Positions 7,084 through 53,321 of a stretch of DNA of 64,000 nt are shown here, piece after piece (position 1 is the stretch's first letter; every line of letters starts with the position of its first letter). The DNA comes from Candidatus Omnitrophota bacterium (GTDB lineage Bacteria > Omnitrophota > Gorgyraeia > Duberdicusellales > 4484-171): contig JBAWWL010000006.1 in the NCBI GenBank assembly GCA_037146775.1, forward strand, positions 15,120 to 79,119, given 5' to 3'. The notes below the pieces were generated by a model. It was not told the origin of the DNA, ran no database searches, and saw only the letters and a program-made list of their open reading frames with translations. Made by a program: the position numbers and the translations under genes.

Positions 7084-7127
7084 AATACCACAGCCCAAAC
7101 AAAAAACCAATAACCCGGCAATCGGGA

Positions 7128-8348: not shown

Positions 8349-8420
8349 AAATATTTATTTGTAATTGCTATTGGCTAATTTTATGCTAAAATCAATTTTC
8401 AAGCAAGATATTTTGCTCAT

Positions 8421-8831: not shown

Positions 8832-8832
8832 T

Positions 8833-9219: not shown

Positions 9220-10733
9220 TGAAGTTCTGATTTCAGAAATTCTAACGCTAAATCAGCCGCATCAAGGCCGGAAAGAAAACAGGCGTGCACGCCGGCACCG
9301 GGACGCGTCCAGGCTCCTGTCAAAAAAAGCCCTTCCACTTTTGTTTCTTGACTTAAACGATTAATGCCCGACTGTTTAACGGTTTGCGCAAAACCATAAA
9401 TTGTTCCTTGCGGCGATAAGGTAAAACGCTCCATGGTACGCGGAGTAGCTATTTCTTTTATTTCGATAGAGCCGGAAAGACCGGGAAGGTAACGTTCGGC
9501 ACGCCTAATGAGAATATCCGCCAAAACAAGTTTTTTCTTTGCATATTCCTCACCGCCCAAGCTCCTCCATCTTTCATAAGTATCGAAGACAATAATTGAA
9601 AGCGTGCCTTTACCCTCGGGGGCAAGGCTTGCATCGAGCTGCGAATGATCCACCATTTCGAAAGGACAATGTTCAAAGTCCTGTTGTGCATAGTAGCTGA
9701 AGTTCTTGTCGTGATCGTAGGTTTCGTTAACGGAAAACATGAAATGATCCATTCCTAATTTTTTCGCGGAAACCTTCAGCCCCAGATACACCTGGAACGC
9801 GGATGTCGATTTTTCCAGCGAAGACAATTTCTTGCGATATCCATTTTTTACCGTATCATCGTCAAGAAGCTCGGTAAGCGTACTTGTGGCGTTCGCGTTG
9901 GAAATAATTGTTTTCGCCGTAAACGTTTCCCCCTTGTCAGTGAGCACCGCACTCACTCTTTTACCTTGTTGAGTAATTATTCTGGTAACGGTCGTATTGT
10001 AGCGTACTTCCGAGCCCTGCTCTCTGATTTTTGCAACCATCGCCTCGAACAATTTACCAACACCCCCTTTTATATAAGCTGTTTTCTCAAAATAATAGCC
10101 GCGAAAACCTAACAAGAAATAAAGTGCAGATAATCTGCTGGGCGCAAGGCCAAAGAAATACCAAAGATTGGCAATAATGCTTCTGAGCTTTTCATCCTGA
10201 ATATGCCTCGCCAGGAACTGGCCCGTAGTTAACCGGGCAACCCGTATAACCTTCAAAGAACGAATCAAAGCAGCCACACATTGCATCCACGAAGTAAATT
10301 GAGATGCGGTAAACCTGTCAAATTGGGCGAAGAATACATCCAGCTCATGGAAAAGTCTGTCGAGATTCTTTATTTCCCGGGGAAAACTGTTTTTGAGGAA
10401 TTCTACAAGGTGTTCGCGGTTAAAATCAACGACAAAGTCGTGCCCAGGATAAATAATACGCAAGAAATCTTTCAATACGATAAAATCTACTGTTTTATCA
10501 ACCCCTGTCTATTCTAAAAAATTTCTTATTTCGCTGCCCGGACAAAGACCATCAACGCAGTGCACCGAAGCCTCAAAAGTAAAACCTTTGCGTTTGAAAG
10601 TAGTAGCAAAACCGCCGGCGAGCGGCTGATGTTCCAAAACCAGAACCCGCTTCCCTTGATCCGAAAGTTCAAGCGCTGCGCTCAAACCGCCAACCCCTGC
10701 GCCGATTACGATAGCATCATATTGCTGCATCAT
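9216..10733 (-). pseudogene. Phytoene-desaturase (CrtI)-family FAD/NAD(P) oxidoreductase interrupted by a single in-frame TAG at 10509-10511
   Basis: N-terminal Rossmann motif YDAIVIGAGVGGLSAA is in the 74-aa ORF (10509-10733). The rest of the protein (9216-10475) is in the same frame. Read-through gives ...EIRNFLE*TGVDKTVDFIVLKDFLRIIYPG... Confidence 0.6.
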
Positions 10734-21074: not shown

Positions 21075-22490
21075 TTAAATCAAACCTTCTTCTATCATTG
21101 CAACAAACGTATCAACAACTGCGGGATTAAATTGTGAATGCTTGTTATTTTTAAGCTGCGCGAGCGCCTCTGTCTTGCTTAACGCCGAACGATAGGCACG
21201 ATCGGAAACCATCGCATCATAAGCGTCCGCCACCGATAAAATCGCAGCAAAAATATTAATACTATCTCCTCTTAACCGATCGGGATAGCCTGCTCCGTCA
21301 TAACGCTCATGATGCCCCCTCACTATCGTCAACATTTCTTCGGTAATAAGCACCGGCCTCAACATCTCCTCGCCGATAAGGGGATGTTGCTTAATAATCT
21401 CCCATTCTTTCTCGGTTAAACTTTCTTTTTTATTCAATACACTTTCCTGGATTCCCAACTTACCGATATCGTGGAGAAGAGCAATCTCTCTCAAAAGCTT
21501 GGCCTTTTCGGGAGGAAATCCCATACGCAATGCTATTTTTTCTGCATATACCGCAACCGATTCGGAATGGCCCTTGATATAAGGATCTCGCGCTTCTAAG
21601 ATCCGTACCAGAGACTGCACCACATCGTAAAAGTAGCTCATCAGCTTTTTCTGAGAATCATTGAGAGCTTTTGCCATCCGGTTAAACGACGCCGCCAAAA
21701 GCGCTATTTCGTCGTCGCTCTTTATGTGCACCTGATAATTCAATTCTCCTTTCGCTATACGACGGGTTCCCTCGACCAACTCCTTGATAGGCCGAACAAT
21801 CCGTTTTGACGCAAACATACCCAACAGAAGCGATACCAATATCCCCAATAACAAAACGAGCAACGCGCGAATATGTACTGTTCTCTGAAGCGTGTAAATA
21901 TCACGGGCTTCGATATCGACCCCCACCATCGCAACCGCACGGTTAGCTTTATCGAAGATAGGTGCATAACCCGACAGGGTTACGCCCCACTCATCGATTT
22001 CAAGCTTAATATCTGCCGACGGGCCTTCGAAAGCCTTGGACATCTGAGGAAAACGCGCTACCGCATATCGATCACCGGGATAAGAATGTGTTTGCGCGCC
22101 TTTCTTTTTCCCCATAACCGGGTCGGGATCGGCAATAAACTGCCACACGCCTTCCTGATCTGTCTTGGCCATCGTATAGATATATTTGATAAGCGGATTC
22201 GCCCGCTTAATATCTTTTAATTTTGCAACAACGGTTTTATATGCCGAAGAATCCACCCCTTCTTCGGAGAGCGGTATCGCCATAAGCGTTTGCGCATCTA
22301 TGGCAAACGAAGCCATTTGCGCAATAATCATTAGTTTTTCCCTTAGCTGCTGGAACTGGGAATTAAGGGCAAACCGATAGATCAATAAATTACTTATTGT
22401 CCCCATAAAAAGCATCGAGGCGACTAAAAGTAATGTGACCTTTGCCTGAAAACTGCTCAGAATTCTACGCCATCTACTCATATACACCAT
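21075..22490 (-). CDS. Sensor HD-GYP c-di-GMP phosphodiesterase (periplasmic sensor, TM, HAMP, HD-GYP)
   Basis: HAMP segment; HD motif HDIGKLGIQESV; GYP motif HHERYDGAGYPD; two TM segments flank an extracytoplasmic domain. Confidence 0.8.
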   Translation of the reverse strand: MVYMSRWRRILSSFQAKVTLLLVASMLFMGTISNLLIYRFALNSQFQQLREKLMIIAQMASFAIDAQTLMAIPLSEEGVDSSAYKTVVAKLKDIKRANPLIKYIYTMAKTDQEGVWQFIADPDPVMGKKKGAQTHSYPGDRYAVARFPQMSKAFEGPSADIKLEIDEWGVTLSGYAPIFDKANRAVAMVGVDIEARDIYTLQRTVHIRALLVLLLGILVSLLLGMFASKRIVRPIKELVEGTRRIAKGELNYQVHIKSDDEIALLAASFNRMAKALNDSQKKLMSYFYDVVQSLVRILEARDPYIKGHSESVAVYAEKIALRMGFPPEKAKLLREIALLHDIGKLGIQESVLNKKESLTEKEWEIIKQHPLIGEEMLRPVLITEEMLTIVRGHHERYDGAGYPDRLRGDSINIFAAILSVADAYDAMVSDRAYRSALSKTEALAQLKNNKHSQFNPAVVDTFVAMIEEGLI

Positions 22491-33575: not shown

Positions 33576-35018
33576 TTAGTGGCTCATTATTTGCCAAGTG
33601 GCAACCTTGGCAAAAATAAAAGGAAAATTAATCAAGATCCCGCTCGCCAAAGAAAGGATTGCCAGCGTTACCACACAGGCGAGCATCCCTGGCGAACCCT
33701 CTATAGCTTCTGGCCCGTGCGTTTCTCCCATAAAAACCATGTTGAATACCCTGAAAAGATACGCAATAGTTAAACAAGCTCCCGCTAAAAAAAGAAATAT
33801 AATATAGAAATTCCCGGACTCTGCCGCAGCGCTAAAAACCATATACTTGCTAAAAAACCCTCCAAAAGGCGGTATCCCCATTACGGAAAAAGCGCAAAAC
33901 AAAAAAGATACAGCGGTAAGAGGCATGGTCTTGATAAGCCCTCCGAGAGAGGTAATATCTCTTGTTTTCGTGTTCTGTTCGACAATACCGGCGCAAAGAA
34001 AAAGTCCGGCCTTGGAAATACCGTGCATAAGAATATATAACAGCGCGCCGATAATACCGATTTCCTTGCCGAGAGCAAATCCAAGAAAAATAAAACCTAT
34101 CTGGCTAATAGTGGAATACGCGATGATCCGTTTTAAGTCCGTTTCTATCAAAGCTGCTCCTCCGGCCACCAGAGCGCTCACACCCGCACTACAAGGTATG
34201 ATGGTATGCCAAATAAACGAAACATCAAAAGTTGCCACAAAAATCCTGGCAAAAACATACACCCCTATTTTAACCAGCACGGCCGCATGCAGAAGTGCTG
34301 TCACCGGAGAAGGCGCAATACCGGCATCAGGAAGCCAAGTCTGAAAAGGCAGCGTGGCTGATTTGGCGAATATGCCGCACAAAAGCAGCAACACCACCAT
34401 ATTATCCAACGGCCGGGACTTAAAAACTTCTCGTATAACCGCAAGGTCAAACGAGCCAGCCTGCTGATAGATAGAAATAAAACCGATCAGCATCAAAAGC
34501 GATCCGAAGATCGTTATGAGAAAAGCTTTATCAGCGCGCAGAATATAGTGTTTCTCCCTGAAAAAACCGATCAAACGCCAGCTACATACGGCGGTTATTT
34601 CCCAAAAAACATATATAAATATCAAGTTGGCGGAAAAAACCAGCCCCATCATCGCCCCCAGGAATAAGGTAACCATAGAATAATATTCGTTCTGATTTTC
34701 ATAATGGCTGATATAGCTAAAAGAATAAAGTAGAATAACCGTGCTCAAAAATGCCGACACGCAAGCCATAAAAACAGCTAATGAGTCGGCAGTAAACACA
34801 AGATTGAAACCCTGCGGGAATTGTCGCGCAAAGATCAAGGTTTTCCCGGATATTACCAACGGTATCAGCGACAAAGAAAGCACAAACGAAGAAAAAATCA
34901 AAATAAAGGAAAAAATATTTCGTAACCGGGCATTATATCGACCTAATAACGGCAGGAAAAATGCTCCAGCAAGAGGGATAAAAATAGTGCTCAAAAGTAT
35001 CATTTTGTATTTAATCAT
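33576..35018 (-). CDS. Mrp antiporter-like subunit (MrpD/NuoN-like)
   Basis: 480 aa (WLPDAGIAPSPVTA); its start overlaps or abuts the mgtA stop. Confidence 0.8.
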   Translation of the reverse strand: MIKYKMILLSTIFIPLAGAFFLPLLGRYNARLRNIFSFILIFSSFVLSLSLIPLVISGKTLIFARQFPQGFNLVFTADSLAVFMACVSAFLSTVILLYSFSYISHYENQNEYYSMVTLFLGAMMGLVFSANLIFIYVFWEITAVCSWRLIGFFREKHYILRADKAFLITIFGSLLMLIGFISIYQQAGSFDLAVIREVFKSRPLDNMVVLLLLCGIFAKSATLPFQTWLPDAGIAPSPVTALLHAAVLVKIGVYVFARIFVATFDVSFIWHTIIPCSAGVSALVAGGAALIETDLKRIIAYSTISQIGFIFLGFALGKEIGIIGALLYILMHGISKAGLFLCAGIVEQNTKTRDITSLGGLIKTMPLTAVSFLFCAFSVMGIPPFGGFFSKYMVFSAAAESGNFYIIFLFLAGACLTIAYLFRVFNMVFMGETHGPEAIEGSPGMLACVVTLAILSLASGILINFPFIFAKVATWQIMSH

Positions 35019-37617
35019 AACCGAATTTCCTGATAAACCACCCTTTCACTATCTGGACTAAGATGAGATACGTGAGGACCATAAAAAATAGAAACACAAA
35101 ATAAAGCGGCGGCGGAGCCACGAAACTAAAAGCGCTCGCCAAAGGCGAAAATGGGATCGCGATACCGATAGTAACTATTAAAATCGAAGTCAAAATCAAA
35201 AAACGGCTGGGACGGCTTTCAATAAAAGGAATTTTTCCGGTACGTATTATATGGATAACCAGCGTCTGGGTGCACAGGGACTCGATGAACCATCCAGTAT
35301 GGAAAAGCGCCGGGTTATTCCAAGTGTTAAAAACAAAAAGCATTATACCATAGGTAAGAAAATCGTAAATCGAACTTAAAGGCCCTATGATAACCATAAA
35401 ATTCCTGATCGCCTTCACATTCCAGGGCCTGGGCTTACTTAAATAATCCCTATCCACCTCATCAGTAGGTATCGCCACTTGGGAGAGGTCATAAAGAAAA
35501 TTATTGAGCAATATCTGGATAGGTAACATCGGCAAAAACGGCAAGAACAGACTGCCGCCGGTCATACTAAGCATATTGCCAAAATTGGAGCTGGAGCCCA
35601 TCTTGATATATTTAACGATATTACCGAAGGTTTTTCTGCCCTCCATAACGCCGTCTTCAAGCACCATAAGGCTTTTCTTCAAAAGTATAATATCCGCTGA
35701 TTCCTTGGCAATATCCACCGCATTATTTACGGAAATGCCTACATCCGAAGCTTTAAGGGCGGGTGCATCATTGATACCGTCACCGAGGTAACCGACGATG
35801 TGCTGGTTATTATGCAAGGCGTGGATAACCCGTTCTTTTTGCAACGGTGCAAGCCGAGCAAAGACAGTGGTGGTTTTCACTACTTCCCGGAGTTCCTGAT
35901 CACTCATTGTTTCGATCTGGATACCAGTAACCAGACCTTTCACGTCCAACCCCACTTCTTTGCATATTTTCTTGGTTACCAACTCGTTATCACCGGTTAA
36001 AACCTTAACTTCCACTCCTAAATTTTTAAGAGCTCTGATGGCTTTCTTGGCCGTAGGCTTTGGCGGATCAAGAAACGCTAAATAACCTTTAAGCACCAAA
36101 TCTTTTTCATCTTCTTTCGAATACACGTCTTTTGCGGTATCGATATCCTTATAAGCAACAGCCAAAACCCTGAAACCTTCGGAACTTAGCTTATCATATT
36201 CCTCTTTAAGATCGGCAAGTATCAAATACTCCATATCCAGGAATTCTCCGTCTATTTCGTACTTCGAACATCGTTTAAAAATTTCCTCCGGTGCACCCTT
36301 GGAAATAATACGTCGTTTACCGTCCATATCAACCACTACCGACATTATTTTTCTGGAAAAATCAAAGGGTATTTCGTCTATCTTTCTAAATTTTTCCGTC
36401 AACACTTCCTGGTGCTTTAAAATAGCGCGGTCAAGAAGATTTTTTAAACCAGTCTGAAAAAAACTATTAAGGTAAGAAACCCGCAGAACATCCTCGTCTT
36501 CCCTGCCTACCACATCGCAGTGCCTTTCCAAAACTATATGGTCCAGGGTTAAGGTGCCGGTCTTATCGGTGCAGAGCACATCCATTGCTCCAAAATTCTG
36601 TATGGAGTTTAAGCGCTTAACAATAACCTGTTTCTTCGACATCTTGATCGCACCCTTGGAAAGATTGATCGCCACCAGCATCGGCAACATTTCCGGAGTC
36701 AAACCAACCGCCACACCAAGAGAAAACAACAAGGACTCAATGAGGTTTCCGCGCCGCAGCGCGTTGATAGCGAAAATAAAGCATACCATAAAAAGCATAG
36801 CGCGGATCATCAGCCAGGTAAATCTTTGTATCCCTTTGTCGAAACTCGTTTCCACCCTAATGGTAGCCAGCCGGCGCGATAGCTCTCCAAACCGGGTATT
36901 AATGCCGGTTTTTATCGCAACGCCTAAAGCCGTTCCGCTCACCACGCTTGAGCCCATAAAGACAATATTAGACAGCTCTGAAATGGAATTATTTTTCGGC
37001 TGGATAACATCCGAGTTCTTTTCGATGGGGAATGATTCTCCGGTTAAAGAAGCCTGGTTAATAAAAAGATCTTTGGAAGAAATAATCCTTAAGTCAGCCG
37101 GGATCATATCGCCGGCGAACAAATCAACGATATCTCCGGGGACTATCTCCCTGATGTTGATTTCTTGTGCCTGGCCATCACGGTACACGGTAGCGGTAGT
37201 ACGCACCATTTCTCTTAATTTTTCGGCTTCTTTGCTGGAACGGTATTCTTGAACAAAGGAAAGAAAAACGCTCATTAGAACCATCGCAAAAACCAGTATG
37301 GCGCTGATTTTGCCTCCAAAAAATAACGAAAAGGTTCCAATAATAATCAGCACGATAACGAGTGGGTTGAGAAACTTGGAAAGAATTTGTGCGAAAATAG
37401 TACGCTTTTTCTTCTTGGCAGGCTCATTGGGACCGTACACAGAAAGGCGCTCGCGGGCATCTTTCGTCGAAAGCCCCTTTTCGGAAGTTTTCAGTCTCTC
37501 AAAAATCGCTTTAAGAGAGGCGCTCACAAAACCAACCTCAAAACCTGCAAACTGACCCCGGTCACCTGGAGAAAGAGGTGTAACGTGAGTAGTGTTTGGC
37601 TTCCAAGATATTCTCAT
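35011..37617 (-). CDS. mgtA: Mg2+-importing P-type ATPase MgtA
   Basis: 868 aa; phosphorylation site CTDKTGTLT; MgtA-specific AGDMIPADLRI, QASLTGESFPIEK and LTGDNELVTKKICKEVGL. Confidence 0.85.
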   Translation of the reverse strand: MRISWKPNTTHVTPLSPGDRGQFAGFEVGFVSASLKAIFERLKTSEKGLSTKDARERLSVYGPNEPAKKKKRTIFAQILSKFLNPLVIVLIIIGTFSLFFGGKISAILVFAMVLMSVFLSFVQEYRSSKEAEKLREMVRTTATVYRDGQAQEINIREIVPGDIVDLFAGDMIPADLRIISSKDLFINQASLTGESFPIEKNSDVIQPKNNSISELSNIVFMGSSVVSGTALGVAIKTGINTRFGELSRRLATIRVETSFDKGIQRFTWLMIRAMLFMVCFIFAINALRRGNLIESLLFSLGVAVGLTPEMLPMLVAINLSKGAIKMSKKQVIVKRLNSIQNFGAMDVLCTDKTGTLTLDHIVLERHCDVVGREDEDVLRVSYLNSFFQTGLKNLLDRAILKHQEVLTEKFRKIDEIPFDFSRKIMSVVVDMDGKRRIISKGAPEEIFKRCSKYEIDGEFLDMEYLILADLKEEYDKLSSEGFRVLAVAYKDIDTAKDVYSKEDEKDLVLKGYLAFLDPPKPTAKKAIRALKNLGVEVKVLTGDNELVTKKICKEVGLDVKGLVTGIQIETMSDQELREVVKTTTVFARLAPLQKERVIHALHNNQHIVGYLGDGINDAPALKASDVGISVNNAVDIAKESADIILLKKSLMVLEDGVMEGRKTFGNIVKYIKMGSSSNFGNMLSMTGGSLFLPFLPMLPIQILLNNFLYDLSQVAIPTDEVDRDYLSKPRPWNVKAIRNFMVIIGPLSSIYDFLTYGIMLFVFNTWNNPALFHTGWFIESLCTQTLVIHIIRTGKIPFIESRPSRFLILTSILIVTIGIAIPFSPLASAFSFVAPPPLYFVFLFFMVLTYLILVQIVKGWFIRKFGYD

Positions 37618-37722
37618 ACGTATTATATTGTTTTCATGTTATACGGTTAATCAAAAAATAAATAAGTCTTCCAGTATATCTACCGAAAGACTTTATATTC
37701 TTTACCTTAACTCGAATGGACG

Positions 37723-37750
37723 ATTTTACTCTTCTTCATTCATTTGTCAA
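37723..37750 (-). promoter_or_regulatory. Sigma70-like promoter upstream of mgtA
   Basis: On the minus strand: TTGACA (37745-37750), 16-nt spacer, TAAAAT (37723-37728); an AT-rich leader of ~100 nt runs to the mgtA start. Confidence 0.45.
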
Positions 37751-37824
37751 TATTTTTAGGTGATAGGTAGCGCTTCCGGCGTTTCTAAATTGTTATCAAA
37801 GAATTTTCAAGCGTAAATTATATC

Positions 37825-38679
37825 CTAGCAGAATTCGCGAGGCAGCTCTTGGCGGGCTCTTGCATGCTGAATCACAAGACGGGCGTCTTCTTCGCGGATT
37901 TTAACCGTTTCTACGCCTATGTCAAATGCGTGCTCCGATAGCTGCGTAACTCTTACAATTTTGACCACAGCCGAGATGGGGGAAACAGAAACTTCCTTTG
38001 GAAGGTCGATTTGCAATACTACATAAGAGCCTACCGGCAGAACTTTTTCCGACTGAAACAAAAACCCATGAAAACTTATATTTTTTGTTTGAGATCGTCT
38101 ATACTGTTCTTGCAAAGGAAAATGTATGTCGATTTTGGCGTTTAACCGGACCGACCTCCGACGTTCACTGCCATCATACCGATCATCATCCAGAGATATC
38201 GCAACCCCATGATCACTTTTACCTGCGCCAGGGGTAATAGTAATATGATAATAGTTTTCAATGGCTTTTATGATATCTGAAATGAGGCCTACAAAAGGTT
38301 GTATTCTGTAGCCGGTTTTCTCTTCAACCTCTCTGATAGCGTCAGTATCAGCCGGATCAGCCATAACTACCGTGATAACGTTATCTATCTTATCTATCGG
38401 AATAAGCCAGTATTTCTGGACTAGATCTTGAGGTATAAGCCGGATAATATCTTGAGGAATTGCATACGCTTCCAGAGGAAGATAAGGAAAACCAAACTGG
38501 GCACAGATGCATTTGGCCAAATCCTCTTCCTTTATATACTTCGCAGTAAGTAAATATTGCGTTACGCCTATGCCGGACTTACTCTGATAGTGAAGCGCTT
38601 CTTTTAAAATATCTTCGGTAATAAGTTTATGCTCTAATAAAATTTGGCCTATTTTTTTCTTCTTCAAAACTGAAAACAT
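37825..38679 (-). CDS. MshEN (T2SSE_N)-PilZ fusion c-di-GMP receptor
   Basis: Tandem 24-residue MshEN motifs KIGQILLEHKLITEDILKEALHYQ and GVTQYLLTAKYIKEEDLAKCICAQ; C-terminal PilZ (ERRRSVR, NISFHG). Confidence 0.7.
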   Translation of the reverse strand: MFSVLKKKKIGQILLEHKLITEDILKEALHYQSKSGIGVTQYLLTAKYIKEEDLAKCICAQFGFPYLPLEAYAIPQDIIRLIPQDLVQKYWLIPIDKIDNVITVVMADPADTDAIREVEEKTGYRIQPFVGLISDIIKAIENYYHITITPGAGKSDHGVAISLDDDRYDGSERRRSVRLNAKIDIHFPLQEQYRRSQTKNISFHGFLFQSEKVLPVGSYVVLQIDLPKEVSVSPISAVVKIVRVTQLSEHAFDIGVETVKIREEDARLVIQHARARQELPREFC

Positions 38680-38831
38680 TTTTGTTTAAGGATGTCTTCT
38701 TATATGTCCATCTCAAATATCCGACACAACTGCAGGGAATGTTATCAAGCCGAAGTATTGTTCTGTTTCGAAAAAATTTTATTTGGATTTATACTTACCT
38801 TAAAAGTTTTCAGATGCCGCCATGCAAATAT

Positions 38832-39527
38832 TTACTTTATCTCGTAAGAAAGTATGATGGCTTCGGCGATTTCCTTCATATGTAAACGCCGGTTCATGCT
38901 CGCCTTACGAATGAGGTCGTAAGCTTCTTCTTCCGTAAGATGTTTTTCTTTCATTAGAATACCTTTCGCGCGTTCGACTTTTTTCCGCGCCTCCAACTCT
39001 TCCTGCGCGATACGAGCCTTCACCAACAACTCGGTATTCTCAATCGCAACCGCTGCCTGGTTCGCTACGGTGCTTAAAAGATCGATGTCTCTCTGGGCAA
39101 ACTTGTATACCTGAGTAGTGTAACAATTGATAACTCCAAACGCTTTATTTTTTACCATCATGGGAACGCTAAGCATCGATACCAAACCTTCTTTTTTAGC
39201 GAGCGTTTTTTCCTTATAACGCGCATCCAGGAGTACGTCAGCGATAAAAATCGGTTTTTTCTCTTTAGCGACAAGCCCGACTATCCCCTCCCCGACCTTC
39301 AAAGAACGTTCTTTCAGATAATCCTGACTCATTGCCTGGGTTGCCCGTATCTTTAACTCCTGCGTGCGCTCGTCTAAAAGCCATAAGGAGCAGATTTTTG
39401 CGCCCACCACGTTTGCGGTAAGTGTAACGATAAGCTTAAGCACATCTTCCAGATAAAGATCAGAAGTCATGGCTTTGCTTATTTTACTGAGAGTTTCAAG
39501 ATAATCTTTATATGGTGACTTCTTCAT
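38832..39527 (-). CDS. GAF and ANTAR domain RNA-binding regulator
   Basis: N-terminal GAF domain; the C-terminal ANTAR helix pair reads EARKKVERAKGILMKEKHLTEEEAYDLIRKASMNRRL. Confidence 0.75.
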   Translation of the reverse strand: MKKSPYKDYLETLSKISKAMTSDLYLEDVLKLIVTLTANVVGAKICSLWLLDERTQELKIRATQAMSQDYLKERSLKVGEGIVGLVAKEKKPIFIADVLLDARYKEKTLAKKEGLVSMLSVPMMVKNKAFGVINCYTTQVYKFAQRDIDLLSTVANQAAVAIENTELLVKARIAQEELEARKKVERAKGILMKEKHLTEEEAYDLIRKASMNRRLHMKEIAEAIILSYEIK

Positions 39528-39591
39528 AACACACGCGGCAAAGTTACGCTGTAGATTAAAATTTTTTTCGGATCGTATACCGGATTAGCCT

Positions 39592-40926
39592 CTATAAAAT
39601 AGGAAGATATGTCTTAGTTTCGTATTCGTGAACCTGTTTACGATACTCATCCCATTCAATCTTTTTGCTCATAATCAGGTTAGTAAATACATGTTCTCCT
39701 ACTGTTTCTTTCAGCAGCTCGCTTTTTTCTGTAATTTCAATAGCCTCAACTAAGCTGCCCGGAAGACACTTGACGCCCAGACTTTCCATCTCCTCGTAAC
39801 TTAGATTGTACACATCGCGTTCAAGCGGTTCAGCCAGCGGATATTTGTTTTCAATTCCTTTTAAACCTGCTGCCAGCATACAGGAAAATGCCAGATAAGG
39901 ATTACAGGCCGGATCCGGAGAACGAAACTCAATACGCGTGGCTTTTTCTTTACCGGGCTTATACATAGGAACCCGCACGAGGGTGCTGCGATTGCGGCGC
40001 GCCCAGCAGATATAAACCGGCGCCTCATAACCGGGAACAAGCCGCTTATAGGAATTAACCCACTGATTACACACTAAGGTTATTTCCGGAGCATGTTTTA
40101 ATAATCCGGCGATATAACTCTTCGCTTCCCCGGATAAATAATACTTATCATTAGGGTCAAAAAAAGCGTTCGCATTGCCCCTGAACAACGACTGATGGGT
40201 GTGCATACCGCTGCCATTGACTCCGAATATCGGCTTTGGCATAAATGTTACATAGAGACCGTATTTTTGCGCGATCTCTTTAGCCACCATTCGATAGACC
40301 ATGACAATATCCGCCATCGCCAAGGCATCGGTATAACGCAAATCAATTTCGTGCTGGGAAGGAGCAACTTCATGGTGTGAATATTCAACCTGGATCCCCA
40401 TCTCTTCTAACGTAAGAATAATTTCTCTGCGCACTTCATTTCCCGCATCAAGCGTGGTCAAATCAAAATATCCGCCCTCATCAATGACTTGAGTTGATTT
40501 TTCATCCTTAAATATAAAGAACTCAAGTTCCGGGCCGGTATAAAAAGTAAACCCCTTGGCCTTTGCTTTTTCCAAGTTTTTTCTCAAAATATAGCGTGAA
40601 TCGCCCTGGTAAGACGTGCCATCAGGATTAAGAATATCGCACAGCATTCCAGCAACAGCTTTCTCTTTTGGCCGATAAGGAAGCAAGGTAAAAGTGGTCG
40701 GATCAGGCATAGCCATCATATCCGACTCATCAATCCTGGCAAAGCCCTTAATCGACGAACCATCAAACCCCATACCTTCATTCAAGGCACCTTCAAGCTC
40801 GTCGCGCGTAATGGAAAAACCCTTCATCTGTCCGGTAATATCCGCAAACCAGAGCTTGATAAATCTGACATCTTTTTCTTTTACCATGTTTAAAATATCT
40901 TTTTTGCTGAAATTATTTTTACCCAT
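39592..40926 (-). CDS. glnA: Glutamine synthetase type I
   Basis: 444 aa with full GSI architecture; Shine-Dalgarno AGGAGGGG upstream. Confidence 0.9.
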   Translation of the reverse strand: MGKNNFSKKDILNMVKEKDVRFIKLWFADITGQMKGFSITRDELEGALNEGMGFDGSSIKGFARIDESDMMAMPDPTTFTLLPYRPKEKAVAGMLCDILNPDGTSYQGDSRYILRKNLEKAKAKGFTFYTGPELEFFIFKDEKSTQVIDEGGYFDLTTLDAGNEVRREIILTLEEMGIQVEYSHHEVAPSQHEIDLRYTDALAMADIVMVYRMVAKEIAQKYGLYVTFMPKPIFGVNGSGMHTHQSLFRGNANAFFDPNDKYYLSGEAKSYIAGLLKHAPEITLVCNQWVNSYKRLVPGYEAPVYICWARRNRSTLVRVPMYKPGKEKATRIEFRSPDPACNPYLAFSCMLAAGLKGIENKYPLAEPLERDVYNLSYEEMESLGVKCLPGSLVEAIEITEKSELLKETVGEHVFTNLIMSKKIEWDEYRKQVHEYETKTYLPIL

Positions 40927-40985
40927 ATCCCCTCCTTATTTTAGGGCATGTACGCAGTTAAAAAATCAGTAAAGCTCTTGATTAT

Positions 40986-41003
40986 CCGCAAACCGCTTGC
41001 CGG
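40986..41003 (-). promoter_or_regulatory. Candidate sigma54 (-24/-12) promoter or hairpin upstream of glnA
   Basis: The minus strand reads CGGCAAGCGGTTTGCG, with GG and GC at the correct spacing. The same sequence can also fold as AAACCG/CGGTTT. Confidence 0.3.
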
Positions 41004-41194
41004 TTTCACACAGAAAATATCCGGCAAAACTTGCTATTATTGTAGCAGGCTTTTTGAGTAAATCAATAATTAAGTACGGGTTTATGTTGACTTTTACGGG
41101 TGGATAAAAATAGAAAGATTTGAGGTTCGCAACATATACATTAAATAAAATACATCCGGAGCGCTTAGCTAACTATTCCACACAAATCCACTGC

Positions 41195-41740
41195 TCAATG
41201 TTCTTTGATGAACTTTTCACCGCTCCATGCCCACAATTCCCAAGTATCTAATTGTTCTGTCGAACAATCCGCGGTACCACTTTTATTCTTGCCGATCTTA
41301 ACCCGGCTTAAACCCGAATCAAAGTCTCCGTCTACACCGCAACTGCTTTCCGCAGTAAACAGCCTAGAGAGGCGATTGTCTTTTATATCATAGATAACCA
41401 AAGCAAGCATACCTTTTGCTTCATAATATACGACTATTTGCTTGTAGTCGTTATTATTTAGATCAATAAATTGTATTTTGGTAAACCGGCCGGGGACGGT
41501 AAATGTGTTCACCTTATTTTTGGACGGTTCCTTGTCCTTCTTGGTGATGGTGACCAACGCATCGGCTTGTGCATCAAACCTATCCGTGACTTCAACAACC
41601 TCCGCAATCATATCGTTATCCAAGTCAACTTTAAACTGCTCAACACCTTTGGGCAATTTCTCTTTTTTGCCATTCAGAGTAAGGCATGAGCTAAACGAAA
41701 CAGCCAGTAATACCAGAACCACTAAGCGCATTATTCCCAT
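41195..41740 (-). CDS. Hypothetical lipoprotein
   Basis: Signal peptide with lipobox FSSC; no recognisable domain. Confidence 0.4.
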   Translation of the reverse strand: MGIMRLVVLVLLAVSFSSCLTLNGKKEKLPKGVEQFKVDLDNDMIAEVVEVTDRFDAQADALVTITKKDKEPSKNKVNTFTVPGRFTKIQFIDLNNNDYKQIVVYYEAKGMLALVIYDIKDNRLSRLFTAESSCGVDGDFDSGLSRVKIGKNKSGTADCSTEQLDTWELWAWSGEKFIKEH

Positions 41741-41794
41741 GACGATACCCCCATAAAAAGTATTATAACCGTTTTTAATAATTGAACAATAGTT

Positions 41795-41838
41795 TATGTT
41801 AGGATGAAAACGAAAGAGGCATCCTCCCGTATCGGGAA
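41795..41838 (-). terminator. Rho-independent terminator after gdhA
   Basis: Stem AGAGGCATC...GATGCCTCT with an inner TCCCG/CGGGA stem at 41806-41838, followed on the minus strand by UUCGUUUUC. Confidence 0.5.
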
Positions 41839-41869
41839 GATGCCTCTGGATAGTTAACAGTTACGCTAA

Positions 41870-43246
<1,377 letters not shown>

Positions 43247-43260
43247 TTATTTTTATGTGG

Positions 43261-44679
43261 TTATTGGCTGACAGTATCAAGCATTGCTTGTGCAGCTTTT
43301 TTCGCCATCCCCATGGCCTCAATAACCGTTCCTTCTCCTCCGACGATATCACCGCCGGCAAAAACACCCTTTACCGAAGTCTCCATGGTATCCTGGTTTA
43401 CTATCACATCCGCGTAAGAATCTGTTTTTAGCTGCGGCGTAACACTGGTAAGTATCTGATTTGCCTTCAATCCTATGGCGATAATTGCTTCATCGCATTC
43501 CAATTCGAAATCACTGCCTTTGATCTCGATTGGCCGTCTGCGACCAGACGCATCCGGTTCGCCCAACTCACATTGTAAACATTTTATATTGTGTACCAAA
43601 CCCTGTTCATCGCCAAGAAACGCCTCTGGTTTCACCAAAAGCCTAAACTTCACGCCTTCTTCTTTAGCATGCTCAATCTCAAGGCGGCGGGCCGGCATCT
43701 CTATTTCGGTACGCCGATACAAAATAGTAGTATCGGGCGCTATATCATTCATTTTTTGCAACCTCAACGCTACGCGCGCTGAATCCATGGCGGTATTACC
43801 TCCGCCGACGACAACAATATGTCTGCCGATGGTAACAGGAGTATGGGTTTTAGGAAACGCATACGCTGACATGAGGTTCACTCGGGTCAAAAACTCATTC
43901 GCGGAATACACATTACAAAAATTTTCGCCCGGGATACCCAGAAATGATGGTATACCCGCTCCCAAACCAAGAAAAATTCCGGTATAACCCTGAGTGAAAA
44001 GTTCCTCCAAGGTGATATTTTTACCGACAATAAAATTCGGGATAAAAGTCACCCCCATGGCTTTTAACGAATTGATTTCGGAATCCAAAATATCTCGCGG
44101 AAGACGGAACGGAGGTATACCGTAGCGTAATACCCCTCCTAATTTATGCAAGCTTTCGAACATGTCGACTTTTATGCCGGCCCTGGCCAGTTCTCCGGCA
44201 CAGCATAACCCTGCCGGCCCGGAACCCACCACCGCCACCTTCTTAACGTTGGACGTTGGACGTTGAACGTTGAACGTTGAATTTTGATTATGCATCCCAT
44301 AGTCGCCGACAAACCGCTCAAGAAAATGTATGTTGATCGCCTGGTCGGACGCGTAAGGAGAACCTTTTTTCGTGAGCACGCAGGCATTACGGCACTGATA
44401 TTCCGCCGGGCACACTCTTCCGCAGATAGAAGGAAAATTATTTTTCTCTCTGATGGTAAGATACGCCCCTTGATAATCTTTTTGCGTAATCTGATAAATG
44501 AACTTTTTGATATCGATTCCCACAGGACAACCGGAACTACAGGCCGGATTTTTGCACTGCAGACAACGCGATGCTTCGTGAAGCGTCTCTTCTTCGCTAT
44601 AGCCGGCAACAACCTCCTGGAAATTATTAACCCTGACAGCGGCAGCCACTTCTTTAATCTTAACCGGATCTTTTCTCAT
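43261..44679 (-). CDS. nfnB: GltD-like FAD/NAD(P) oxidoreductase (NfnB/SudA-type, glutamate synthase small-subunit family)
   Basis: N-terminal Fe-S cysteine cluster, VAVVGSGPAGLCCA and a second NAD(P)-binding fold; paired with a PyrK-like subunit. Confidence 0.8.
   Translation of the reverse strand: MRKDPVKIKEVAAAVRVNNFQEVVAGYSEEETLHEASRCLQCKNPACSSGCPVGIDIKKFIYQITQKDYQGAYLTIREKNNFPSICGRVCPAEYQCRNACVLTKKGSPYASDQAINIHFLERFVGDYGMHNQNSTFNVQRPTSNVKKVAVVGSGPAGLCCAGELARAGIKVDMFESLHKLGGVLRYGIPPFRLPRDILDSEINSLKAMGVTFIPNFIVGKNITLEELFTQGYTGIFLGLGAGIPSFLGIPGENFCNVYSANEFLTRVNLMSAYAFPKTHTPVTIGRHIVVVGGGNTAMDSARVALRLQKMNDIAPDTTILYRRTEIEMPARRLEIEHAKEEGVKFRLLVKPEAFLGDEQGLVHNIKCLQCELGEPDASGRRRPIEIKGSDFELECDEAIIAIGLKANQILTSVTPQLKTDSYADVIVNQDTMETSVKGVFAGGDIVGGEGTVIEAMGMAKKAAQAMLDTVSQ
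44245..44279. repeat. 7-bp tandem repeat (RACGTTG, 5 units) inside the nfnB linker region
   Basis: aacgttg gacgttg gacgttg aacgttg aacgttg; translated on the minus strand it gives STFNVQRPTSNV, between the Fe-S domain and the FAD-binding domain. Confidence 0.7.
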
Positions 44680-45506
44680 TGCACCTTATGTAAATTGCAC
44701 ATATGTTTTTCCTGCGCCGCGTATACTCTGTTGCGCTTGGTAAGTTCATCCCAATCAACAGTCCACGCGTCAAATTCCGGGCCATCCACACAGCTAAAAC
44801 GCGTTTGGTTGTCAACCGTCACCCGGCAACACCCGCACATTCCTGTTCCATCAACCATAAGCGCATTAAGCGACACCATGGTTTTAGTCTGAAAATCCTT
44901 AGTAACCCCCGCAACGTTTTTCATCATTGGAATAGGGCCAACCGCATATACCAAACCGTAAGAACCCCGCGGCAACAACTCTTTTAAGACATCCGTCACA
45001 AAACCTTTCTTGCCATAAGAACCATCGTCAGTAGTAACATGAAACTCGTCAGAGATACTTCTTAGCTGCTGCTCCAGGATAAGCAACGTTTTGGTGCGCG
45101 CGCCCAAAATAGTCGTCAGGTGATTACCGGCGTCTTTTAAAGCTTTTGCTACCGGATAAATTTCCGCGATCCCCACTCCACCACCGACCAAAATCACTTT
45201 GCCATATTGTTTAATTGCGGTAGCATGCCCCAGTGGTCCGGCAAGCGCATACAAAGAATCGCCTTCTTGTAGCTGGGCCAATAATTTTGTGGTAAATCCC
45301 AACTCTTGAAAGATTAAAGTAATGGTGCCTTTAAGCGTATCGTTCGATACAACCGTAAGCGGTATACGTTCACCTTCTTCACGTACCATCAATACCACAA
45401 ACTGGCCCGGTTTTGCCTTACGAGCAATGTGTGGAACATGAACAGTTATGCGGATAACTCTCACTCCTCCCACATCGGAAAGTACTTCTTTTTCGGTTAT
45501 ATTCAT
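44676..45506 (-). CDS. nfnA: PyrK-like FAD/NAD-binding iron-sulfur subunit (NfnA/SudB-type)
   Basis: 276 aa; ferredoxin-NADP-reductase fold with a C-terminal [2Fe-2S] motif (CGCCRV); overlaps nfnB by 4 nt. Confidence 0.75.
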   Translation of the reverse strand: MNITEKEVLSDVGGVRVIRITVHVPHIARKAKPGQFVVLMVREEGERIPLTVVSNDTLKGTITLIFQELGFTTKLLAQLQEGDSLYALAGPLGHATAIKQYGKVILVGGGVGIAEIYPVAKALKDAGNHLTTILGARTKTLLILEQQLRSISDEFHVTTDDGSYGKKGFVTDVLKELLPRGSYGLVYAVGPIPMMKNVAGVTKDFQTKTMVSLNALMVDGTGMCGCCRVTVDNQTRFSCVDGPEFDAWTVDWDELTKRNRVYAAQEKHMCNLHKVQ

Positions 45507-50286: not shown

Positions 50287-51450
50287 TTACGTGCGAAACG
50301 GATAGGCTTTCAGAAATGCATCAACAGCGCAGGGCGCAAACTGCTTTCCTCTATTACGCACTATCTCGGCACGAGCTTGCTCTCGAGAAATACCCTTATG
50401 ATACGGCCTGTCGGTCACCATCGCGTCAAACGTATCGGCAAGGGCAATGATCGAAGCTATCAAGGGAATTTGACGCCCCTTAAGACGGAACGGATAGCCA
50501 TTACCATCATATTTTTCGTGATGATACTTGACCCCCAGTAATACCTCCTGAAACGCCTCGATATGCTCTAAAATAGCCGCACCCACAAGAGGGTGAGTTT
50601 TAACCAATTTCTTTTCTTTTTTGTTTAGCCGCACGTTTTTATGAAGAATGTGTTCCGGAATCCCGATCTTTCCTATATCATGCAAAAGCGCGGCTATGTT
50701 AAGATTCTCCACAAAACGTTCCCAGTTTTTGATAGGTTTGCTCTTGCGCAAAACATGCGCAATATGAAGCGCATATTTTGCCACTCGCTCGGTATGGCCA
50801 ATTGTATATTTATCTTTTGCCTCAATGCTTGAGGCAAGTGACGCGATCGTCTGCAGCAGAAGCCGTTTATTGGCGTCAATTTGGCGGTTAAGATCTTCAA
50901 TGAGCCAGGCATTTTTGAGCGCCATAACTATATCCGAAGCGAGCGTTGAAAGAAAGCTCAGCTCGGCGTCGTGAAATTTTTTTTTATTTGCCTTCTCTCC
51001 CAAAAACAAAACCCCAACCAAGTCATTGCGGAAAAAACCGGGAATACACGCGTGAGCCTGATACGAAAAAAGTGCGTCTTTGACTTCCTCTAAAAATTTC
51101 TTCATTGGGGCATTTTCCCCGATCCCAAAAGACTCACATGCGCCGCTGACCCCATCGGCAGTAATTATTTCTCCGGGGAAATAAATACTTTTATCGGTAA
51201 AACACCTGATAAGAGGATTGTCTTTTCGTATTTTCGCAAAACCAGCCGGTATTTTAAACCCTCGGCTGCCGCGGGAAACCTGCAGCACATATTCATCCCT
51301 TTTTTTATCATAAATAAACATGCCTGCATGGCTCAATCCGACAGCACGGACAATCGTGCGTAAAATCATTTTTATCAACGTATTCGCCCGATGAATCATA
51401 ATAGTCTGACGGGCAGCTTTTTCCAATGCTTTACGATAATCGAGCTTCAT
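50287..51450 (-). CDS. GAF-HD-GYP c-di-GMP phosphodiesterase
   Basis: N-terminal GAF domain; HDIGKIGIPEHILHK and HHEKYDGNGYP motifs. Confidence 0.8.
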   Translation of the reverse strand: MKLDYRKALEKAARQTIMIHRANTLIKMILRTIVRAVGLSHAGMFIYDKKRDEYVLQVSRGSRGFKIPAGFAKIRKDNPLIRCFTDKSIYFPGEIITADGVSGACESFGIGENAPMKKFLEEVKDALFSYQAHACIPGFFRNDLVGVLFLGEKANKKKFHDAELSFLSTLASDIVMALKNAWLIEDLNRQIDANKRLLLQTIASLASSIEAKDKYTIGHTERVAKYALHIAHVLRKSKPIKNWERFVENLNIAALLHDIGKIGIPEHILHKNVRLNKKEKKLVKTHPLVGAAILEHIEAFQEVLLGVKYHHEKYDGNGYPFRLKGRQIPLIASIIALADTFDAMVTDRPYHKGISREQARAEIVRNRGKQFAPCAVDAFLKAYPFRT

Positions 51451-51495: not shown

Positions 51496-51870
51496 TTAAG
51501 GGTTACCGATATACATTTCAACCTTCTGTCGTAGTTCATGCAAATCTAACGGTTTTGTAATATAATCCAACGCGCCGCATTTCTTCGCTTTCTGTTGACA
51601 TTTCTTGTCATCTTTACCGGTAATCATGATGACCTTCAGGGAGGCGTCTGCCGCCCTAAGTTCTTCAAGCACGGCAATACCATCTTTGTCGGGCATTTGG
51701 ATATCCAAAAAAACATAATCCGGTTTATGCTCGCGATATGCAGCAAGAGCCTCTTGGCCTTTATTTATCTTAATGACGTCGAAATTAAAACGCCTTAAGA
51801 AATGTTCTAAGAAATCAACAATTTCCTGTTCGTCGTCTACCACTAATGCTTTTTTTCTGGCATCATTCAT
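51496..51870 (-). CDS. Stand-alone response-regulator receiver (CheY-like)
   Basis: DD...D acidic pocket (VVDDEQE, FLDIQMPDKDG), T (MITGK) and K (ITKPLD). Confidence 0.8.
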   Translation of the reverse strand: MNDARKKALVVDDEQEIVDFLEHFLRRFNFDVIKINKGQEALAAYREHKPDYVFLDIQMPDKDGIAVLEELRAADASLKVIMITGKDDKKCQQKAKKCGALDYITKPLDLHELRQKVEMYIGNP

Positions 51871-51983: not shown

Positions 51984-53321
51984 CTAAATTAAAGAAAGAT
52001 ATTCCTTCCCTTCCAGGAAAGGGTTTAAGGAGCGCTCGATTTTATAGCCGGGCTTTTTCTCGCTTAAATTAAGTATTCCTTTTTTCTCTGAAGGGACTAG
52101 CACTTCTACGGTAGGAAAAAATATATCTTCCGCATTCTCTTCTCTGACTACGGCAATATAACCGTCCTCAAGAACCACGATAGTACCTCTCGGCCACACC
52201 CCCATTATCTTGAAAAATTTTTCCAAAAGAAAAGGATCAAACGCCCCGGCACTTTCCCGCATCATTAAATCATAAATCATCCGTGGCGGATAATCTCTCT
52301 TGTACGTTCTACGTTGCATCAGCGCATCATACACGTCACAGATCGAAACCAGCAAAGAAATAATATGAGGCTTTTGCTTAAAAGAAAGCTTCGGATACCC
52401 TTTCATATCGTAGCGTAAGTGATGTTCAAACGCCACGACCGCCGGCAACATTCCCAGCGTATCCACATATTGCAAGAGCATCTCGGCCCCCTGGATCGTG
52501 TGACTTTGTATAGTCAAAAATTCTTCGCTCGACAGTTTATCCGGCTTGGTAATAATACGCTTCGATATGTAAATCTTACCGATATCGTGGAATAATGCGG
52601 CAATGCCGACATCCAACATATCATCCTTTGAAAGCCCAAGCATCGCAGCAAAATTCATAGACAGAATCGAAACATTTAAAAGATGCGTAAACGTCGAAAC
52701 ATCATATTTTTTAATCCCTGCAAGTTTAGCAAACTCTTCATAATTACCCACGAGATTATCTACCACCATCATCATGGTAAACTTAAGCCCTACTCCATCC
52801 ACCTCTTTGTTGTCAAGCAGCACATCGACAAACTGAGAAGTCCGCTCTAACGAATTATCATAATAGTCTTGATAACCCGTCGGCTGCACCGCAACGGCTT
52901 CGGACGAAGAAAGCCCGAGTTTACTCACCAGAACATTTCGAATGCCCTGCACAGAAAAATATTCCTGCACATCTTTAGGAGCTTTATCGCGGGTTAACGC
53001 AAGATATTCCACAAATTTTGCTAATTCATCTCTGGACAGGCCACGGTGAAAAATAATTTTTTCTATTCCCCGCTCTTTGAATAAAGAAATAATTAATTTT
53101 GCTTTTTTGCTCAACTCAAAGAAAATTTCTTTTTCAAAAATAAGCTCATCCCCGACCACCCCTATCACCAGTTCTTCTTTTTCGTCTAAGAGTGCGACAA
53201 GACTGGCGTAATTTTTATCAAGAAATTCCATGAATTTAGGATGCGCGGTAGTATAAATCTTAGCTATCTGGAACAAAGACAACAAATCCTTTAAAAAACA
53301 CTCAATCCTTTCGCGCATCAA
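51984..53321 (-). CDS. HD-GYP phosphodiesterase with an N-terminal DUF3391-like domain
   Basis: HDIGKIYISKRIIT and HHLRYDMKGYP motifs; the N-terminal ~120 aa are paralogous to the N-terminus of the upstream 643-aa protein. Confidence 0.75.
   Translation of the reverse strand: MMRERIECFLKDLLSLFQIAKIYTTAHPKFMEFLDKNYASLVALLDEKEELVIGVVGDELIFEKEIFFELSKKAKLIISLFKERGIEKIIFHRGLSRDELAKFVEYLALTRDKAPKDVQEYFSVQGIRNVLVSKLGLSSSEAVAVQPTGYQDYYDNSLERTSQFVDVLLDNKEVDGVGLKFTMMMVVDNLVGNYEEFAKLAGIKKYDVSTFTHLLNVSILSMNFAAMLGLSKDDMLDVGIAALFHDIGKIYISKRIITKPDKLSSEEFLTIQSHTIQGAEMLLQYVDTLGMLPAVVAFEHHLRYDMKGYPKLSFKQKPHIISLLVSICDVYDALMQRRTYKRDYPPRMIYDLMMRESAGAFDPFLLEKFFKIMGVWPRGTIVVLEDGYIAVVREENAEDIFFPTVEVLVPSEKKGILNLSEKKPGYKIERSLNPFLEGKEYLSLI

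Follow-up and report, generated by a model that had tools for sequence, protein, structure and literature searches.

PilZ and MshEN have been described as the two broadly distributed dedicated receptor domains for cyclic diguanosine monophosphate (c-di-GMP), with ComFB recently proposed as a third. MotI, YcgR and MapZ follow an enzyme-free adaptor logic in which a beta-barrel with a C-terminal helix carries the canonical RRxxxR and (D/N)xSxxG motifs of PilZ; in the YcgR/MotI-type receptors the N-terminal partner is a PilZN/YcgR-N domain. The MshEN domain (also GSPII or T2SSE_N) has been described in fusion with REC, HD-GYP, CheA, CheX, cyclase and kinase domains (Wang et al. 2016) and with a glycosyltransferase (NfrB). 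A PilZ fusion is absent from the main text and supplement of Wang et al. 2016, a review preprint on PilZ mentions MshEN in passing only, and the term 'MshEN-PilZ' was not found in the literature searched. The two folds meet in Xanthomonas citri, where, in the PilB(N)-PilZ-FimX complex (7LKO), a PilZ-fold protein and an MshEN-like domain cooperate in c-di-GMP signalling. Here we analyse a 64,000-nucleotide stretch of contig JBAWWL010000006.1 (assembly GCA_037146775.1) from Candidatus Omnitrophota bacterium, referred to as the window, in which a single minus-strand gene at 37825-38679 encodes an MshEN domain followed by a PilZ domain. The family to which it belongs appears to be previously undescribed, both component domains being well known.

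The protein shares with MotI, YcgR and MapZ the PilZ motifs, the fold and the lack of an enzyme, and differs from YcgR/MotI-type receptors in having MshEN/GSPII as the N-terminal partner and in its low sequence similarity to solved PilZ domains. Escherichia coli NfrB, a glycosyltransferase with a C-terminal MshEN domain, is likewise a non-ATPase fusion, and its model aligns to residues 7-144 of the protein (51.8 bits); NfrB, however, is an enzyme activated via its own MshEN domain, whereas the protein described here has PilZ and no catalytic domain. It can be viewed as the covalent counterpart of the Xanthomonas complex, and on this analogy we regard the PilB(N)-PilZ pair as its nearest functional analogue. 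In Xanthomonas the proteins are separate, FimX binds c-di-GMP while PilB(N) and PilZ do not, and their target is the type IV pilus; the fused protein, in contrast, has canonical PilZ binding motifs and no pil gene context.

Domain architecture and family of the MshEN-PilZ protein

The gene and the parts of its product are as follows, by window position.

37825-38679, minus strand: MshEN-PilZ open reading frame (gene X), complete from ATG to stop, 284 amino acids (aa)
38584-38655, minus strand: MshEN motif I, KIGQILLEHKLITEDILKEALHYQ, residues 9-32; K-I-G, L25, L29 and Q32 retained, position 10 K and not G
38497-38568, minus strand: MshEN motif II, GVTQYLLTAKYIKEEDLAKCICAQ, residues 38-61; degenerate, with G-V-T for (R/K/L)-L-G and K at position 10; L54, I58 and Q61 retained
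38245-38496, minus strand: MshEN_C (ND1-like) alpha/beta subdomain, residues 62-145, containing a conserved VVMADPxD segment
38167-38244, minus strand: linker, residues 146-171, low confidence and predicted to be disordered, with a conserved Y168-x-G170 just N-terminal to the PilZ RRxxxR
37855-38166, minus strand: PilZ domain, residues 172-275, beta-barrel and C-terminal helix
38146-38163, minus strand: PilZ RRxxxR motif, residues 173-178, RRRSVR (R173-R174-R-S-V-R178)
38065-38082, minus strand: PilZ (D/N)xSxxG motif, residues 200-205, NISFHG (N200-I-S202-F-H-G205)

A sequence-only reading of the window had described this frame as an MshEN-PilZ fusion devoid of an enzymatic domain, and the analysis agrees: the frame runs exactly from ATG to stop on the minus strand, profile scores over curated cut-offs and a fold search place both domains in one protein, and the protein stops after PilZ. 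In Pfam, PF05157 (MshEN) scores 65.3 bits on residues 62-145 (E 4.9e-18, cut-off 23.1) and PF07238 (PilZ) 38.5 bits on residues 172-272 (E 1.6e-9, cut-off 22.5); the cut-offs of the T2SSE_N and PilZ hidden Markov models, which that reading had named as a check, are both exceeded. The 53-residue NCBIfam model NF053729 ('c-di-GMP_motif, MshE-related') covers residues 9-61 with 39.5 bits (cut-off 38). NCBIfam models of PilB, GspE and NfrB match within the N-terminal ~150 residues only, those of PilB and GspE aligning to residues 9-156 and staying far under their cut-offs; a T2SSE ATPase domain C-terminal to MshEN is absent. Sequence matches in the PDB are the N-domains of PilF, PilB, MshE and XpsE. 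A TTG at codon 5 is an alternative start that would give a 280-aa form, and the NCBI deposit of this form is named 'PilZ domain-containing protein'.

An AlphaFold2 model built with 20 homologues (mean predicted local distance difference test, pLDDT, 71; predicted template modelling score, pTM, 0.50) has a four-helix bundle at residues 10-62 (helices 10-16, 22-35, 39-45 and 51-62), an alpha/beta subdomain at 84-144, a disordered linker at 146-177 and, at 180-275, a beta-barrel plus C-terminal helix (strands spanning 184-260, helix 263-275). With Foldseek the N-terminal half finds Vibrio cholerae MshE (5HTL; template modelling score 0.84 on the target, root-mean-square deviation 2.2 A, E 7e-10) and, as second-best structural match, PilF GSPII-A; the C-terminal half finds the c-di-GMP-bound PilZ structures of MotI (5VX6), YcgR (5Y6G) and MapZ (5XLY), as well as the PilZ domains of Alg44 and BcsA. 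The N-terminal part is an MshEN/GSPII (T2SSE_N) domain by homology and fold, and the C-terminal part is a PilZ domain by profile and fold. The adaptor idea put forward earlier holds, as does the architecture of MshEN and PilZ with no catalytic part.

Close relatives of the protein form 24 clusters at 90% identity, all with both domains, and the named ones are annotated 'PilZ domain-containing protein [Candidatus Omnitrophota bacterium]'. In an exhaustive profile search of 1.84 billion representatives, 285 matches had E<=1e-30; the architecture was read for the best 150 of 27,648 matches, and these, pooled with the closer relatives, include at least 99 proteins with the whole module, ~70 of them distinct at 50% identity. 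Chance or artefact as the origin of the fusion is ruled out, because the 24 clusters (90%) and the ~70 (50%) share the module and its motifs. All source-named members belong to Omnitrophota, including the six full-module matches in one-genome-per-species GTDB data and the named representatives of more distant clusters, and the family is apparently restricted to this phylum.

Long forms of 340-1031 aa, in which the module is C-terminal, make up most of the pooled set. They begin with a single N-terminal hydrophobic (membrane) helix, followed by 70-750 residues with a high content of E, K, Q and L that look coiled-coil-like, by composition only. Examples are found in clusters P0027, P0029, P0034, P0075 and ~55 others and at L014:9581-10831, and the stalk varies widely in length. 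The protein of the window is a genuine short, soluble form, since the GAF-ANTAR gene ending 152 nucleotides (nt) upstream leaves no space for an N-terminal extension.

State of the two candidate ligand sites

Residues were counted in 98 distinct proteins with the whole module. In the PilZ half, R174 and R178 each occur in 98/98 and R173 in 91/98, while D/N200 is found in 96, S202 in 89 (with Cys in 7 more) and G205 in 95. A family profile puts RRxxxR and NISxxG onto RRQYVR and NISAGG of Bacillus subtilis MotI (5VX6, entered as YpfA in the sequence table) with an E-value of 0.02; the profile was required for this, a single-sequence phmmer search of the PilZ half against PDB sequences giving no match. 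The RxxxR and N/DxSxxG motifs noticed earlier at the C-terminus are in register with this verified binder, and the alignment reveals no loss of motif residues. Judged by these residues, the PilZ signature is intact and that of a working c-di-GMP site.

The MshEN half aligns to V. cholerae MshE ungapped over residues 7-69, with identical numbering. Motif I keeps G11, L25, L29 and Q32 and changes R9 to K, L10 to I and G18 to K; motif II keeps L54 and Q61 and changes R38 to G, L39 to V, G40 to T, G47 to K and L58 to I. The binding consensus was taken from PMC5013675 and PMC11731258, its extended form being (R/K/L)LG...L...L..Q (PMC11731258). Motif I satisfies the extended consensus (K9-I10-G11, L25, L29, Q32) except at position 10, which is K and not G/A/S, and its K-I-G is comparable to K167-L168-G169 of PilF GSPII-B. 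Motif II lacks what binding requires, with G38 for the stacking residue (R/K/L) and T40 for the Gly that contacts guanine N7 through its amide. Neither motif agrees even with the relaxed pattern that Wang et al. 2016 used for searching: motif I departs from it at position 10 (K), motif II at position 10 (K) as well as at 1 (G) and 3 (T). The N-domain of MshE (5HTL) and PilF GSPII-B have the same two-subdomain fold as the MshEN half, which keeps both terminal Gln; unlike them, it has G38-V39-T40 for R/L-L-G and Lys at position 10 of both motifs, and it is followed by PilZ and no ATPase.

Several studied proteins indicate what such changes do to binding. In V. cholerae MshE, G40I and G11L each remove ligand stabilisation, and the non-binder XpsE of Xanthomonas campestris has R38G and G40L among its changes. 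In engineered GSPII-A of Thermus thermophilus PilF, Ala at the motif II Gly position makes binding ~10-fold weaker, and additionally restoring Ser at motif II position 1, the Arg position, abolishes it; an Ncap motif (helix N-cap) on helix alpha1 is one cause of the non-binding of GSPII-A. Structures of PilF GSPII-B show that the side chain at position 1 (K or L there) must stack on guanine, Lys at this position being linked to higher affinity in GSPII-B and a hydrophobic residue, in the PilF study, to very high c-di-GMP affinity. Like the MshEN-PilZ protein, GSPII-A (S39/A41) and XpsE (R38G/G40L) have a largely preserved motif I and a motif II degenerate at the Arg and Gly positions; these two non-binders, however, also lost terminal glutamines (H33/R62 in GSPII-A, Q61V in XpsE), whereas the MshEN-PilZ family keeps them and has its own T-Q-Y. 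PilF GSPII-C, which reads R-L-E in the aligned stretch, was considered as a precedent for a non-Gly motif II position 3 and left unused, as it has three motif copies whose binding pair is not established. Beyond ligand binding, MshEN-type N-domains serve as docking modules, examples being PilB(N) with PilZ in X. citri (7LKO) and GspE/EpsE ND1 with GspL/EpsL.

The altered motif II characterises the whole family and is no peculiarity of the window protein. Position 1 is G in 25 of the 98 modules, N in 24, S in 22 and T in 8 (79/98), R, K and L being absent among the residues listed; position 3 is T in 61, L in 12, S in 8, V in 5, A in 4, I in 4 and G in 2. With Q at position 4 in 74 and Y at position 5 in 73, T40-Q41-Y42 is a conserved signature specific to the MshEN-PilZ family. 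The control set comprised 22 stand-alone MshEN proteins of <=200 aa, the next-best relatives without PilZ. Their motif II is L-L-G (L in 18/22, G in 20/22, Q at position 24 in 21/22) and their motif I has G in 22/22; two exceptions bear a T-Q/D-Y signature and are taken to be fragments of the fused family. As motif II is L-L-G in the control and degenerate in the 98 modules, the PilZ fusion and the loss of both the stacking residue and the glycine go together on these alignments. We infer that position 1 (G/N/S/T) and position 4 (Q/E) form a helix N-capping box, which would satisfy the backbone amides used by MshE and GSPII-B to hold phosphate, N7 and O6.

The sequence-only reading had seen both MshEN motifs at the N-terminus and proposed a dual c-di-GMP sensor. 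The two strings are present (residues 9-32 and 38-61), and on alignment to verified MshEN domains motif I retains its residues; motif II does not (R38 to G, L39 to V, G40 to T), and dual sensing as stated is not supported by the comparison with MshE, XpsE and PilF. Since the stacking residue and glycine of the second half-site are lost, the MshEN domain is most likely no longer an independent high-affinity c-di-GMP site, and its canonical binding would be weak or absent. A single-site adaptor appears most likely because only the PilZ half retains an intact binding signature.

Gene neighbourhoods

The genes upstream of the MshEN-PilZ gene in the window are these.

38832-39527, minus strand: GAF-ANTAR regulator gene, upstream neighbour at a 152-nt gap
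39592-40926, minus strand: glnA, type I glutamine synthetase (GS), in the block NfnA-like / GltD-like / glutamate dehydrogenase (GDH) / glnA / GAF-ANTAR
41870-45506, minus strand: nitrogen-assimilation genes, NfnA-like (FAD/NAD-binding and DHODB Fe-S domains), GltD/NfnB-like and NADP-type GDH

The location first read, between a hydrogenase/mgtA operon and GAF-ANTAR/glnA genes, is correct: GAF-ANTAR and glnA lie upstream, and a P-type ATPase (start 37617) and then an Mrp/NiFe-hydrogenase-like cluster lie downstream. The NfnA-like, GltD-like and GDH genes are directly upstream of a gene for a 181-aa protein (no Pfam match), glnA and GAF-ANTAR. A GAF-ANTAR gene adjoins homologues of the MshEN-PilZ gene in five other loci; it precedes the MshEN-PilZ gene in the window, L058 and L006-8, with a gap of 33 nt in L006. 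In L002 the order is MshEN-PilZ gene, nitroreductase, glnA, GAF-ANTAR, and in L005/L010 and L009 it is GltD-like, MshEN-PilZ gene, Glu_synthase, with Amt, PII and GS within ~7 kb. Related genomes instead have a stand-alone Glu_synthase (PF01645) after the GltD-like gene, with the MshEN-PilZ gene between them, and the latter has been kept inside the nitrogen block through several rearrangements.

In a neighbour-joining tree all nitrogen-context loci fall into one clade. P0023 looks like an outlier, but its neighbours share 65-83% identity with those of L005, and it therefore represents the same lineage, with a fast-evolving MshEN-PilZ gene. The window and L005 are syntenic over ~12 kb (HD_5, monogalactosyldiacylglycerol synthase, acyltransferase, PCMT, NfnA-like, GltD-like). 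Owing to the single clade and this synteny, the association with nitrogen genes is mostly inherited, and its value as independent evidence is weakened. At L009 (= L071; 703-1521) and L005 (8001-8840) the MshEN-PilZ proteins are ~40% identical to the window protein, and the flanking GltD-like and Glu_synthase proteins are 65-83% identical between the two loci; in this lineage the MshEN-PilZ gene appears to change much more rapidly than the genes around it.

Genes of c-di-GMP turnover recur beside the family. In L001, L059 and L065 the gene directly upstream of the homologue encodes a HAMP-HD-GYP protein, in L011 such a gene lies divergently beside it, and in L013 a GGDEF gene overlaps the start of the homologue. 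The window encodes HD_5/HD-GYP-type proteins at 21075-22490, 50287-51450 and 51984-53321 (all minus, one with HAMP) and a single-domain response regulator (REC) at 51496-51870; tblastn found no GGDEF gene in its 64 kb. These HD-GYP and GGDEF genes, together with the HD_5/HD-GYP-type proteins of the window, support a link to c-di-GMP. Other clades have as neighbours pyrR-pyrB-pyrC, a GAF histidine kinase, a REC protein, extracytoplasmic function (ECF) sigma factors, HD-GYP, GGDEF or unrelated genes, and clusters of glycosyltransferase family 2 (GT2) genes adjoin some homologues (L001, L059).

There is no sign of a riboswitch or an ANTAR-type leader, since Rfam gave no match in the whole window at the gathering threshold, a permissive Rfam scan of 37500-41900 gave chance-level matches only, and the 166 nt upstream of the MshEN-PilZ gene fold no better than shuffles (z = 0.46). 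Promoter and terminator counts at 37400-41300 are near the shuffle expectation, and no promoter-like or terminator-like match was found on the coding strand in the 152-nt gap between the GAF-ANTAR and MshEN-PilZ genes.

On the downstream side, the interval between the MshEN-PilZ stop and the ATPase start (37664-37750, minus) contains a good sigma-70-like site (TTGACA, 16 nt, TAAAAT; 11/12) and then a 13-pair hairpin with a T-rich tail, ~50 nt ahead of the start of the MgtA-like ATPase. Rfam finds nothing here at gathering score; the hairpin could be the terminator of the glnA/GAF-ANTAR/MshEN-PilZ unit or an attenuator-type leader of the ATPase. The ATPase frame and the first Mrp/Mbx-type antiporter-like gene share 8 nt (35011-35018), the ATPase-then-MrpD order likewise follows the MshEN-PilZ gene in L003, and an MrpD homologue directly follows it in L058. 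On account of this overlap and of the arrangements in L003 and L058, the P-type ATPase seems to belong to the Mrp / NiFe-hydrogenase-like operon.

Related single-domain and fused proteins were also seen. A divergent MshEN-PilZ gene of an Omnitrophota metagenome-assembled genome (MAG) is preceded, two genes upstream, by one for a STAS-PilZ fusion (L015:8240-8965; STAS 59 bits, PilZ 47 bits), a further unusual PilZ architecture within this phylum. In Omnitrophota and Planctomycetia, MshEN also occurs as stand-alone proteins of 147-183 aa (L016:9998-10498, L025:9974-10438 and ~20 more loci, L017-L030 and L038), with L-L-G in motif II and (Q/K/R)-L-G in motif I. In the two loci read in detail, one from an Omnitrophota and one from a Planctomycetia genome, the gene lies directly upstream of pilB (L016) or in the order pilT, MshEN, pilB, pilB (L025), and these free-standing proteins may be uncharacterised pilus regulators. 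Directly upstream of MshEN and pilB in L016, a Planctomycetia MAG, is a gene (5954-9979) whose 1341-aa product has a GGDEF domain at its N-terminus and, behind it, an AAA/STAND-like, repeat-rich stretch.

Proposed function and rival explanations

We propose that the protein of the window is a soluble c-di-GMP adaptor with PilZ as the predicted sensor and the MshEN-like domain as a docking or output module; the picture as a whole has, in our judgement, an even chance of being right. The intact motifs, the fold and the neighbouring turnover genes suggest that c-di-GMP would bind PilZ via RRxxxR and N/DxSxxG, the RRxxxR arm at the end of the ~30-residue flexible linker and the N/DxSxxG strand clamping the ligand as in MotI, YcgR and MapZ. 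In YcgR/MotI-type PilZ proteins the linker becomes ordered on ligand binding. By analogy, binding would order the flexible linker that carries RRxxxR here, and this could shift the position or the accessibility of the MshEN-like domain in a conformational relay. The MshEN-like domain may in turn dock a partner, as N-domains do with PilZ in Xanthomonas and with GspL/EpsL in type II secretion, and in the lineage of the window nitrogen-assimilation proteins are candidate partners. In the long forms a coiled-coil stalk would hold the module at the membrane.

Some observations weigh against this proposal. No conserved partner gene was found beside the MshEN-PilZ loci, and at a pTM of 0.50 the model gives no reliable information on contacts between MshEN and PilZ. 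The motif-terminal glutamines are kept in the family (Q32 in 82/98, Q61 in 74/98), as are the leucine clusters, and the conservation of T40-Q41-Y42 points, as far as sequence can tell, to a selected function and not to decay, so that a modified ligand site in the MshEN domain is possible; the NF053729 score, barely over its cut-off (39.5 vs 38 bits), is counted here too. The retained Q32, Q61 and leucines, the conserved T-Q-Y and the NF053729 match would suit a true dual sensor, in which both domains bind c-di-GMP, perhaps at unequal affinities, in a two-threshold or cooperative manner and the Tyr at motif II position 5 may stack in place of Arg; motif I, moreover, fits the extended high-affinity consensus with a favourable K at position 1, and the model superposes best on ligand-bound MshE (5HTL). 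Motif II, however, has neither the stacking residue nor the Gly, changes at these positions abolished or strongly weakened binding in two experimental systems, this Gly occurs in 2/98 family members vs 20/22 stand-alone relatives, and the putative N-capping box would occupy the guanine- and phosphate-binding amides. We consider dual sensing unlikely. A bolder variant, which we think distinctly improbable, is that the MshEN half has been re-tooled: GG-x-(I/L/V)-T-Q-Y and the kept glutamines would form an altered second half-site, giving the protein two c-di-GMP sites with two thresholds, a site composed of MshEN and PilZ together, or sensitivity to a second nucleotide such as cyclic GMP-AMP (cGAMP) or the linear dinucleotide pGpG; in the lineage of the window the signal could pass into GS/glutamate synthase (GOGAT) or ANTAR-controlled nitrogen assimilation.

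A role in nitrogen assimilation, in which the adaptor would link c-di-GMP to the GAF-ANTAR antiterminator encoded beside it, to glutamate synthase or to glutamine synthetase, finds support in the several arrangements beside nitrogen genes (window, L058, L006-8, L002, L005/L010 and L009), the short gap to GAF-ANTAR in L006 and the window gap free of promoter- or terminator-like matches. All such loci are nevertheless of one clade, P0023 being of the L005 lineage, and the synteny between the window and L005 indicates a largely inherited association; other clades lie beside HD-GYP, GGDEF, pyr, GAF histidine kinase, REC or unrelated genes, and no ANTAR-type or other structured leader was found. 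This role seems to us improbable. Control of a type IV pilus or type II secretion system is very unlikely. In such a role the MshEN-like domain would imitate the PilB/GspE N-terminus and, under PilZ/c-di-GMP control, compete for PilM/GspL-type platform proteins; GspE ND1 binds GspL, PilB(N) binds PilZ in Xanthomonas, and the nearest PilZ-less relatives include the stand-alone MshEN proteins beside pilB, but tblastn found neither the PilB ATPase nor PilT in 236 kb flanking 30 full-module loci or in the 64-kb window.

The tie to nitrogen assimilation is weak and would be new if true; to our knowledge, no c-di-GMP effector is linked to GS/GOGAT or ANTAR-controlled nitrogen assimilation. The family of PilZ-fused MshEN domains offers a natural experiment on the fate of an MshEN site, by decay or by remodelling, once a PilZ sensor is attached, in that motif II is altered in a defined and conserved way while the unfused Omnitrophota paralogues keep L-L-G with a hydrophobic position 1. 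Omnitrophota, an uncultivated phylum, gains a defined candidate family of c-di-GMP effectors, most of which are membrane-anchored, coiled-coil-like proteins.

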